A stretch of DNA of 64,000 nt from the NCBI GenBank assembly GCA_964291315.2, contig OZ219753.1:2528001-2592000 (forward strand), read 5' to 3'. Source of the stretch: Candidatus Poribacteria bacterium (GTDB lineage Bacteria > Poribacteria > WGA-4E > WGA-3G). The position numbers were made by a program, and so were the translations under genes. Shown piece after piece: positions 36,052-37,239 of the stretch (within the stretch, counting starts at the first letter, position 1; every line of letters begins with the position of its first letter). The notes beneath the pieces are model-generated. The model saw nothing but the letters and a program-made list of their open reading frames with translations, did not search any database and was not told where the DNA came from.

Positions 36052-37239
36052 TTAGTCGGCCGCTGGTGCGAAAACTTCCGGATTCTCCGCAGCGGCATCG
36101 TAATCGTCGATCAGTTTTGTAATGATAGGGGTATCGCCGCAGATCGGGCAATTTTCATCTCGGTTGATTTTCATCTCGCGATAGGTCATTCCGAGTGCTT
36201 CATAGAGAATGAGCCTGCCGATGAGGGGTGCACCGATACCGAGAATATATTTAATCGCTTCGGTTGCCATCATGACACCTATTATGCCTGGGAGCACGCC
36301 CAGAACTCCGGCCTCGCTTCAGCTCGGCACTAGGCCTGGGGGTGGCGGGGTCGGATACATGCATCGATAGCAAGGACCATCGTGTGGTTTAAAGAGCGAG
36401 ACCTGCCCTTCAAACTGGAAAATACTACCGTGGACGATTGGTTTACCCAATAGTACAGCTGCGTCATTGACGAGATAACGGGTGGCGAAATTATCACACC
36501 CGTCCACAATTATGTCATATTCTGAGAAAATTTCTTCAACATTATCGGCAGCTAGACGCAGGTTATACGGAGTGATGTCAATGTCTGGGTTCAACGACTT
36601 AATGGTTGTTGTCGCGGATTGTACCTTCGGTGTGCCGACGGCTTCTGTACGGTGGAGTATCTGACGTTGGAGGTTACTTAACTCCACAACATCAGAATCG
36701 ATAATACCGAGATGGCCGATACCTGCGGCCCCGAGATACACGCCTGCTGGTGATCCCAAGCCTCCTGCACCAACCAGCAGGACGTTAGCATCAAGGAGTT
36801 TGGCTTGTCCGTGTTCGCCGACTTCTGTGAGCATAAAATGCCGGCTGTAACGGTCGAGCTGATCGTGTGTCATCGGTTTGTCTTGTGCAGTCGGGAACCC
36901 GGCGCTCATCCAGTCCCGATAGCCGCCTGCAAGAGAGACGGTATCAGTGTATCCCATTTGGCGGAGGGATTTGGCAGCGAGTAGAGAACGGAGCCCCGCT
37001 GCGCAGTATACAACGACCTTTTGGTCTCGATCAGGAATATAATTTTCGATAGAGAACTCAAGCATGCCACGTGTGACATGCACAGCATTCGGGATATAAC
37101 CGGCGCGATATTCATCTTCATCGCGAACATCCAGCAGTACGAAATCGTTCTCTTCGTCTTGTTCGGTTTTCACTTCAGCAACAGTTACTTCCGGTATTTC
37201 TGCTTTCGCTTCCTCAACGATTTGCCTGTAGGATTTCAT
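36052..37239 (-). CDS. moeB: Rhodanese-MoeB/ThiF fusion (MoeZ-like sulfur-carrier adenylyltransferase) with in-frame UGA, probable selenocysteine
   Basis: Rhodanese LDVR..EY..GYIPNA / YCAAGLRS; RYSRH, GAGGLGS, SNLQRQ, CYRC; reads [24 protein letters not shown] in frame and continues to CPICG. Confidence 0.9.

Follow-up and report, generated by a model that had tools for sequence, protein, structure and literature searches.

Gene organization at the locus

The 64,000-nucleotide stretch analysed here (the window) comes from a Candidatus Poribacteria genome (assembly GCA_964291315.2, contig OZ219753.1, positions 2,528,001 to 2,592,000), and carries on its minus strand a gene of the MoeB/ThiF family with a UGA codon in its reading frame. 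Translation table 11 divides this gene into two open reading frames (ORFs) that share a frame, 36319..37296 (325 aa) and 36052..36297 (81 aa). When the TGA is read as selenocysteine (Sec, U), the minus strand from 37296 to 36052 becomes a single uninterrupted frame, which passes through a CPICG motif near its C-terminus and ends at a regular stop codon. A previous reading of the DNA letters alone (the sequence-only reading) had noted the two same-frame ORFs, the in-frame UGA and the intact CPICG C-terminus, all of which are present, and had proposed a rhodanese-MoeB selenoprotein of 395 residues. The results described below make it very probable that the gene does encode a selenoprotein of this length, of the MoeB type with an N-terminal rhodanese domain, in which UGA307 is decoded as Sec, and which serves as a sulfur-carrier-protein adenylyltransferase/sulfurtransferase.

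For comparison, I scanned species-representative genomes for the gene, and kept the best 80 of 559 confirmed matches as loci. Sixty-six of these carry the title Candidatus Poribacteria or were placed there (83–92% protein identity to the window), while the other 14 belong to the Binatia, Myxococcota and Thermodesulfobacteriota (54–57% identity). The window and the 66 Poribacteria loci form the Poribacteria-clade set (n = 67), and addition of the 14 others, which have a cysteine (Cys) codon at the site and are called the Cys homologues below, gives the all-sequence set (n = 81).

The main features of the gene are as follows:

36052..37239, minus strand: coding sequence of the probable rhodanese–MoeB/ThiF selenoprotein, 395 codons followed by a TAA stop, with codon 307 a UGA (Sec)
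36904..37182, minus strand: N-terminal rhodanese domain (Pfam PF00581, E = 3e-20; PDB match 6mxv)
36145..36849, minus strand: ThiF/MoeB adenylation domain (Pfam PF00899, E = 4e-84), spanning the TGA
36319..36321, minus strand: in-frame TGA, codon of the probable Sec307, whose counterparts are Cys187 in E. coli MoeB and the crossover-loop Cys in Uba4
37249..37253, minus strand: probable Shine-Dalgarno sequence AGGAG, 9 nt upstream of ATG 37239, read from the sequence
37329..37357, minus strand: predicted sigma-70-type promoter, TTGACA-17 nt-TATAAT with an extended TG, assigned by its consensus match (12/12 in a consensus scan)

The true start is the ATG at 37239, as this codon is an ATG in 66/66 Poribacteria-clade sequences with a residue in that column of the 67-sequence alignment. 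The length of 395 residues given by the sequence-only reading therefore stands, as does its mention of a consensus promoter, which the scan places at 37357..37329. Back to back with this promoter lies another sigma-70 consensus match (11/12, TTGACA-18-TAAAAT, 37452..37481, plus strand), facing a gene at 37568..38443.

As had also been anticipated, annotation pipelines mis-split the gene. Among the best protein matches, the public gene calls for this protein end at 306–307 aa, with the C-terminus ...PPPPG(M/L)VP(S/G); they include one group at 72–77% identity, and one of the shortened calls is the NCBI record 'ThiF family adenylyltransferase' (P0006). Calls shortened in this way lose the Sec residue, half of the zinc site and the C-terminal part of the adenylation domain. 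A mechanical search for UGA-interrupted genes gave 41 candidates in the window, and when these are judged on the ORF map, with no homology test of each, the moeB-like gene is the only one that lies outside other genes and has both halves coding.

The encoded protein possesses the elements expected of both domains. The rhodanese active-site loop reads C79-A-A-G-L-R84 (CxxGxR), with the Cys79 codon at 37005..37003, and both Cys79 and Arg84 are present in 81/81 sequences. The nucleotide-binding motif of the adenylation domain, G157-x-G159-x-x-G162, is likewise conserved in 81/81, and so are the two CxxC pairs of the zinc site, Cys290/Cys293 (36372..36361) and Cys364/Cys367 (36150..36139, the CPICG motif). 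The protein scores 535.1 bits against the NCBIfam model NF006444 (PRK08762, molybdopterin-synthase adenylyltransferase MoeB with an N-terminal rhodanese; cut-off 449), its residues 5–383 covering positions 4–382 of the 387 in the model. It thus has the same architecture as its closest full-length homologues, which are 393–404 aa long, share 55–64% identity with it and have Cys at the site; the Poribacteria gene differs from them in having a UGA at the codon of the crossover-loop Cys.

Conservation of the UGA codon

The codon at position 307 is TGA in 66/66 Poribacteria loci, in addition to the window, while the aligned codon in the 14/14 homologues from other phyla is TGC (12 sequences) or TGT (2 sequences). 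The UGA is therefore located at the conserved MoeB Cys, as the sequence-only reading had stated, and the comparison of orthologues that it suggested gives a uniform answer: the Sec codon is fixed in all 66 Poribacteria species representatives returned among the best 80 of the 559 matches. This is a property of one codon, since TGC or TGT encodes each of the five other conserved cysteines of the protein (79, 290, 293, 364 and 367) throughout the Poribacteria-clade set. A quick maximum-likelihood tree puts the TGA sequences (n = 67) on one side of a branch with support 100, and a single change between Cys and Sec is therefore sufficient to account for the distribution.

The serine codon that precedes the UGA is also nearly invariant:

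36322..36324, minus strand: Ser codon directly 5' of the UGA, fixed as AGC (66/67 Poribacteria-clade sequences, entropy 0.11 bit)

Among the Cys homologues, half (7/14) have AGC at the corresponding Ser codon and half (7/14) have AGT. The frozen AGC could be due to a context effect, either on Sec decoding or on termination.

Translation beyond the UGA

All 67 Poribacteria-clade sequences have exactly 88 codons from the TGA to the next stop. Over these 88 columns, the mean pairwise diversity at codon positions 1, 2 and 3 is 0.085, 0.033 and 0.415 respectively, next to 0.073, 0.020 and 0.491 over 250 columns before the TGA. This pattern identifies the region after the TGA as a translated frame under purifying selection. 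It extends to the codons immediately following the TGA: codons +1 to +4 show third-position changes only (AGC or AGT; GAG in 44 sequences and GAA in 23; all four GCN codons; three of the GGN codons), except for a Ser-to-Asn substitution in five sequences. Such near-synonymous change argues against termination at the TGA and restart at the GTG found eight codons on. TGA also ends 10 of the 46 ORFs of the window as an ordinary stop codon, and the genetic code is therefore not reassigned.

A putative SECIS hairpin downstream of the UGA

The sequence-only reading described a hairpin, CTGGG-CGTGCT-CCCAG, shortly after the UGA. This hairpin is present, with its stem beginning at the 16th nt after the TGA, and is a candidate for the bacterial Sec insertion sequence (SECIS):

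36286..36306, minus strand: putative bacterial SECIS hairpin, supported by a freeze of synonymous variation, by conserved pairing and by agreement with published criteria

In the window, the core repeat consists of CTGGG (36303..36299), the loop CGTGCT (36298..36293) and CCCAG (36292..36288). At the base of the complete hairpin, G36306 pairs with C36286. Next come a bulged U (36305) and a stem of 6 bp, formed by 36304..36299 and 36292..36287 and capped by the loop CGUGCU, whose distance from the UGA is 20 nt. Across the clade the stem is formed by CCUGGG with CCCAGG; in the window its 5' strand reads UCUGGG.

I measured the entropy of synonymous codon choice in the Poribacteria-clade alignment over 322 columns with a conserved, degenerate amino acid, for which the mean is 1.18 bit. 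Codons +5 to +10 (GTC CTG GGC GTG CTC CCA), which occupy nt 15–32 after the TGA, have entropies of 0.22, 0.11, 0, 0, 0.11 and 0.11 bit. With a mean of 0.093 bit, compared with a median of 1.21, they constitute the lowest six-column window of the gene, a value reached by none of 100,000 permutations. In the Cys homologues (n = 14), these positions are instead among the most variable of the gene: their mean is 1.05 bit, that of the gene 0.73, and they rank 220th of 250 windows. Codon preference does not explain the freeze, because other Gly columns favour GGT and other Val columns vary.

Pairing within the hairpin is kept in 99.5% of the cells of the 67-sequence alignment, with just two cells losing it. 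At five of the seven pairs, one partner varies and the other is constant; nearly all of these single changes keep a G-U wobble.

The published description of bacterial SECIS elements (the bSECISearch model, as given in the Fig. 2 legend of PMC13188914) specifies a loop of 3–9 nt, a stem of 4–16 bp, a spacing of 16–37 nt and an energy of at most -7.5 kcal/mol; the same legend adds a G within the first two loop positions, with a U after it. The window hairpin lies within each of these limits: its loop has 6 nt and its stem 6 bp, the second loop nucleotide is a G and the third a U, the spacing is 20 nt and the energy -7.6 kcal/mol. This was another of the comparisons suggested by the sequence-only reading. 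In the minimum free energy (MFE) fold of 45 nt, 66/67 sequences show a hairpin that conforms to the model, the window being the exception. The hairpin departs from the model in an optional sub-pattern, a pairing of the first and fifth loop nucleotides, and in that its sequence is here largely dictated by the codons of the LGVLPG motif. The telling RNA evidence is the loss of synonymous variation, and not fold energy or covariation.

A scan of the whole window with Rfam at the gathering threshold gave no match to the hairpin. The fold of the 66-nt stretch of the window taken as a single sequence was dropped as a test, since it gives a different, non-conserved structure.

Selenocysteine machinery in Poribacteria

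For the machinery of Sec incorporation, the evidence is indirect and comes from listings for this phylum. In supplement file 2 of PMC5649159, 'Ca_Poribacteria_WGA3G' has two counts for SelA (COG1921), one for SelB (COG3276) and one for SelD (COG0709); these were read from the 36th genome column by my own count, and this way of counting also yields sensible values for Pelobacter seleniigenes and Desulfovibrio. The TGA is present in the locus retrieved from the Candidatus Poribacteria bacterium WGA-3G record (L015). The article to which the supplement belongs states that SelA and SelB are found together in most bins of sponge symbionts, and an excerpt of PMC13582414 places Poribacteria among the phyla with Sec-containing group 4 hydrogenases.

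A tRNA scan of 60 of the 80 loci did not find tRNA-Sec. One of these loci (L059) carries a cluster of tRNA genes, Gly-GCC, Cys-GCA and Val-GAC, at its positions 2292..2581, about 400 nt upstream of the moeB orthologue; the other 59 scanned loci are without tRNA.

Alternative explanations

If the TGA were a true stop, the locus would hold a split gene, in which a protein of 306 residues, with the rhodanese domain and part of the ThiF domain, assembles with a separate C-terminal piece of 81 residues, started at GTG 36297 (codon +8), and the crossover-loop Cys is dispensed with. The two table 11 ORFs agree with this, the GTG start being 24 nt after the TGA, as do the public listings of 306–307-aa proteins and the invariance of the GTG in 67/67 sequences. 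However, codons +1 to +4, all located ahead of the GTG, are translated, and no conserved Shine-Dalgarno sequence is found at a working distance from the GTG (GGAG occurs in 11/67 sequences, and GAGG is at least 14 nt off). The frozen codons form a stable hairpin over the GTG that would hinder initiation, the break falls exactly at the codon that is Cys in 14/14 homologues, and SelA, SelB and SelD are listed for a genome with the same TGA. I consider a split gene quite improbable. A nonsense mutation, a pseudogene or a sequencing error, for which the single in-frame stop in an otherwise intact gene could speak, is excluded for practical purposes: the same TGA is found in 66/66 independent assemblies of different species, and 67/67 sequences keep an intact 88-codon frame after it, with variation dominated by third positions, which refutes this explanation.

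Stop codon read-through can be stimulated by downstream structures. The UGA could accordingly be suppressed by a standard tRNA (near-cognate, for Trp or Cys) with help from the hairpin, so that an ordinary residue is placed at position 307. In favour of this explanation, the diversity pattern shows that translation continues past the TGA, but does not identify the inserted residue. Against it, the site shows the classical Sec/Cys pattern, being a Cys in the Cys homologues, and the hairpin fits the SelB-type SECIS model in its spacing and its loop G. MoeB is moreover a recognised selenoprotein family, and the Sec machinery is listed for Poribacteria WGA-3G. A leaky stop would also have been costly to keep over the history of the clade, whose sequences share 72–95% nucleotide identity, with TGC and TGT both one mutation away. 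Read-through without selenium is thus very unlikely. Decoding of the UGA as Sec, the proposal of the sequence-only reading, is supported by the conservation of the TGA, by the purifying selection downstream of it and by the agreement of the hairpin with the SECIS model.

Several observations weigh against Sec at this position, or against the function that I propose for it. The 64-kb window contains no selA, selB, selC or selD (0 tRNAs, no Rfam match at the gathering threshold and no Sel domain in 46 ORFs). No compensatory double change occurs at any hairpin pair in the 67 sequences, as the stem is almost invariant, and covariation hence provides no proof of the structure. A lower stem that would lengthen the SECIS, as predicted for L003 and L015, is not supported: 83.7% of its cells pair, and one of its pairs fails in 27 of the 53 distinct rows. 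The window hairpin is the weakest of the 67, with a U-G closing pair, its energy of -7.6 kcal/mol and a share of about 5% among the structures of the free RNA (51 nt), for which another fold, using nt 3–28, has the MFE (-16.2 kcal/mol). The 66-nt stretch folds no better than shuffled sequences (z = -0.38). An Rfam scan of 36150..36450 at an E-value threshold returned two irrelevant weak matches only. Of the Cys homologues (L067–L080), 6/14 also satisfy the SECIS criteria at the same place, about 15–38 nt after the Cys codon, since the conserved LGVLPG motif is encoded by self-complementary codons. As to function, E. coli MoeB/MoaD involves no thioester (PMC6007339), and the catalytic role assigned to Sec is drawn purely by analogy.

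The six Cys homologues make the SECIS criteria unspecific here, and the hairpin by itself does not discriminate between Sec and Cys genes. The use made of the hairpin by the sequence-only reading is therefore upheld in part: the structure exists and accords with the published model, but is weak evidence for Sec when taken alone, in view of both the Cys homologues and its share of the window RNA ensemble. In L003 and L015, the conserved hairpin makes up close to 100% of the ensemble. In the window, a ribosome paused on the UGA would probably cover the 5' arm of the alternative fold, going by general knowledge of its footprint on mRNA.

Relation to known MoeB selenoproteins

MoeB has been listed as a selenoprotein family since 2005. 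The sections consulted of a Sargasso Sea survey report 11 sequences (Zhang, Fomenko & Gladyshev, 2005; PMC1088965), and those of the Global Ocean Sampling (GOS) survey 19 (Zhang & Gladyshev, 2008; PMC2398784). Two reviews, from 2022 and 2026, include the MoeB selenoprotein in the lists consulted, with MBT7809913.1 as representative (PMC9312934; PMC13188914), and a list in PMC1976440 gives it as not detected in Olavius symbionts. The sequence-only reading had described Sec-containing MoeB as only rarely reported, which these sources correct.

In the descriptions available in these sources, the published MoeB selenoproteins come from marine settings and, like the Poribacteria gene, belong to the MoeB/ThiF family (COG0476, PF00899, pfam05237), with one UGA-encoded Sec and widespread Cys homologues. 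This likeness is one at family level, drawn from text descriptions that give neither the Sec position nor the domain architecture. A search of the open-access literature found no report of a MoeB selenoprotein gene in Poribacteria. The Poribacteria gene is a well-supported further member of an already known selenoprotein family, and not the founder of a new one.

Proposed role of Sec307

Sec307 aligns with Cys187 of E. coli MoeB (1jw9_B; the residue number was obtained by counting along the printed alignment). In Chaetomium Uba4 (6yub_A), its counterpart is the Cys of the motif SCGEAG, where chain index 200 probably corresponds to Cys202 of the published work. Two studies describe the action of this crossover-loop Cys, which is residue C225 of yeast Uba4 and C202 of the Chaetomium protein: a thioester forms between it and adenylated Urm1, and is then attacked by the rhodanese persulfide (PMC7911844; PMC7527816).

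Two groups of enzymes of known structure are useful for comparison. The adenylation domain of Uba4/MOCS3, the eukaryotic E1-like activator of Urm1 (PDB 6yub and 6yuc), aligns with that of the Poribacteria protein with E = 3.5e-57. The rhodanese domain is C-terminal in Uba4 but N-terminal in the Poribacteria protein, and Uba4 uses Cys rather than Sec. As the rhodanese loop is an active one, with Cys79 and Arg84 in 81/81 sequences, the Poribacteria protein resembles Uba4 in its list of parts. E. coli MoeB (1jw9) and ThiF (1zfn, 1zud) align over residues 125–368 of the Poribacteria protein (E = 1.4e-56), and both zinc-site CxxC pairs are present; in contrast to the Poribacteria protein, neither has a rhodanese domain. 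ThiF and ThiS are known to form an acyldisulfide.

From these comparisons, the following sequence of events can be proposed. The hairpin at 15–35 nt after the UGA, whose conservation is described above, would recruit SelB with Sec-tRNA(Sec), so that Sec would be inserted at UGA307 and translation would run for 88 more codons to the TAA. By analogy with its relatives, the ThiF domain would adenylate a ubiquitin-like sulfur carrier (of the MoaD, ThiS or CysO kind) at its C-terminal glycine. Sec307 could then attack the acyl-adenylate to give an acyl-selenoester, from which a persulfide on the rhodanese Cys79 may take over the acyl group, leading to the thiocarboxylate of the carrier. Alternatively or additionally, Sec might resolve an acyl-persulfide. 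The role of Sec307 would accordingly be that of a selenoester intermediate, of a resolving residue, or both. Compared with sulfur, selenium at position 307 would be superior both as a nucleophile and as a leaving group, and its oxidation is easier to reverse. The pathway served by the enzyme may be that of the molybdenum cofactor, of thiamine, of cysteine or of tRNA thiolation.

A broader idea, which I put forward tentatively and as rather doubtful at present, is that the protein is a natural 'seleno-E1', in which Sec307 forms an acyl-selenoester with a ubiquitin-like sulfur carrier. Rhodanese-fused bacterial MoeBs might then use a covalent crossover-loop intermediate as Uba4 does, unlike E. 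coli MoeB, and the fixation of Sec in the sampled Poribacteria would mark that step as selected. The LGVLPG codons would moreover provide Cys homologues with a proto-SECIS, as 6/14 of them satisfy the SECIS criteria, and could explain why this particular Cys became Sec; their self-complementarity may represent a pre-adaptation for the conversion of Cys to Sec.

The Poribacteria enzyme, as a natural variant with Sec where Uba4 has its crossover-loop Cys, could be used for testing whether rhodanese-fused bacterial MoeBs form a covalent intermediate. Its gene also indicates that Poribacteria, which are widespread associates of sponges, use selenium in an enzyme of sulfur relay. With regard to method, the SECIS is defined here through the loss of synonymous variation rather than through fold energy, an approach that is useful because the fold criteria alone passed 6/14 Cys homologues.

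Neighbourhood of the gene and other features of the window

No gene for MoaD, ThiS, CysO, a JAMM protein or cysteine synthase lies next to the moeB-like gene, and a Pfam search of 35 neighbouring ORFs from six loci found no MoaD or ThiS. The neighbours differ between loci, and the neighbourhood is thus not conserved. Small ORFs ending in GG number four across the window and the 80 loci, none of them recurrent at a conserved place (the four were not scanned for carrier domains).

Directly downstream of the moeB-like gene, the minus strand carries a zinc-ribbon ORF (Pfam Zn_ribbon_TFIIB, 35769..36098), which as listed overlaps the end of the gene by 47 nt; an internal Met at about 36017 would remove the overlap. 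A similar zinc-ribbon ORF follows the gene in L002, and there is none in L015, L022 or L049.

Elsewhere in the window, the plus strand at 8741..11821 encodes a Type ISP restriction-modification enzyme of 1026 aa, with coupler, N6 methylase and Type_ISP_C domains, and a separate N6_N4 DNA methylase is located at 45757..47535. A 128-aa fragment of a DDE transposase (DDE_Tnp_1_3; 25907..26293, plus strand), probably a decayed insertion sequence, lies in a gene-poor gap at 25740..26852. This gap is followed by a protein of 902 aa with two FGE-sulfatase domains (26852..29560), and an APS kinase is encoded at 32237..32869. Three paralogous FG-GAP/ASPIC-UnbV repeat proteins are found at 5479..7134, 11939..14287 and 33134..34864. 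Lastly, a 112-aa ORF with a rubredoxin-like CxxC...CxxC motif (50253..50591, plus strand) occupies part of the 730-nt gap between the genes for uvrB and an M16 peptidase.

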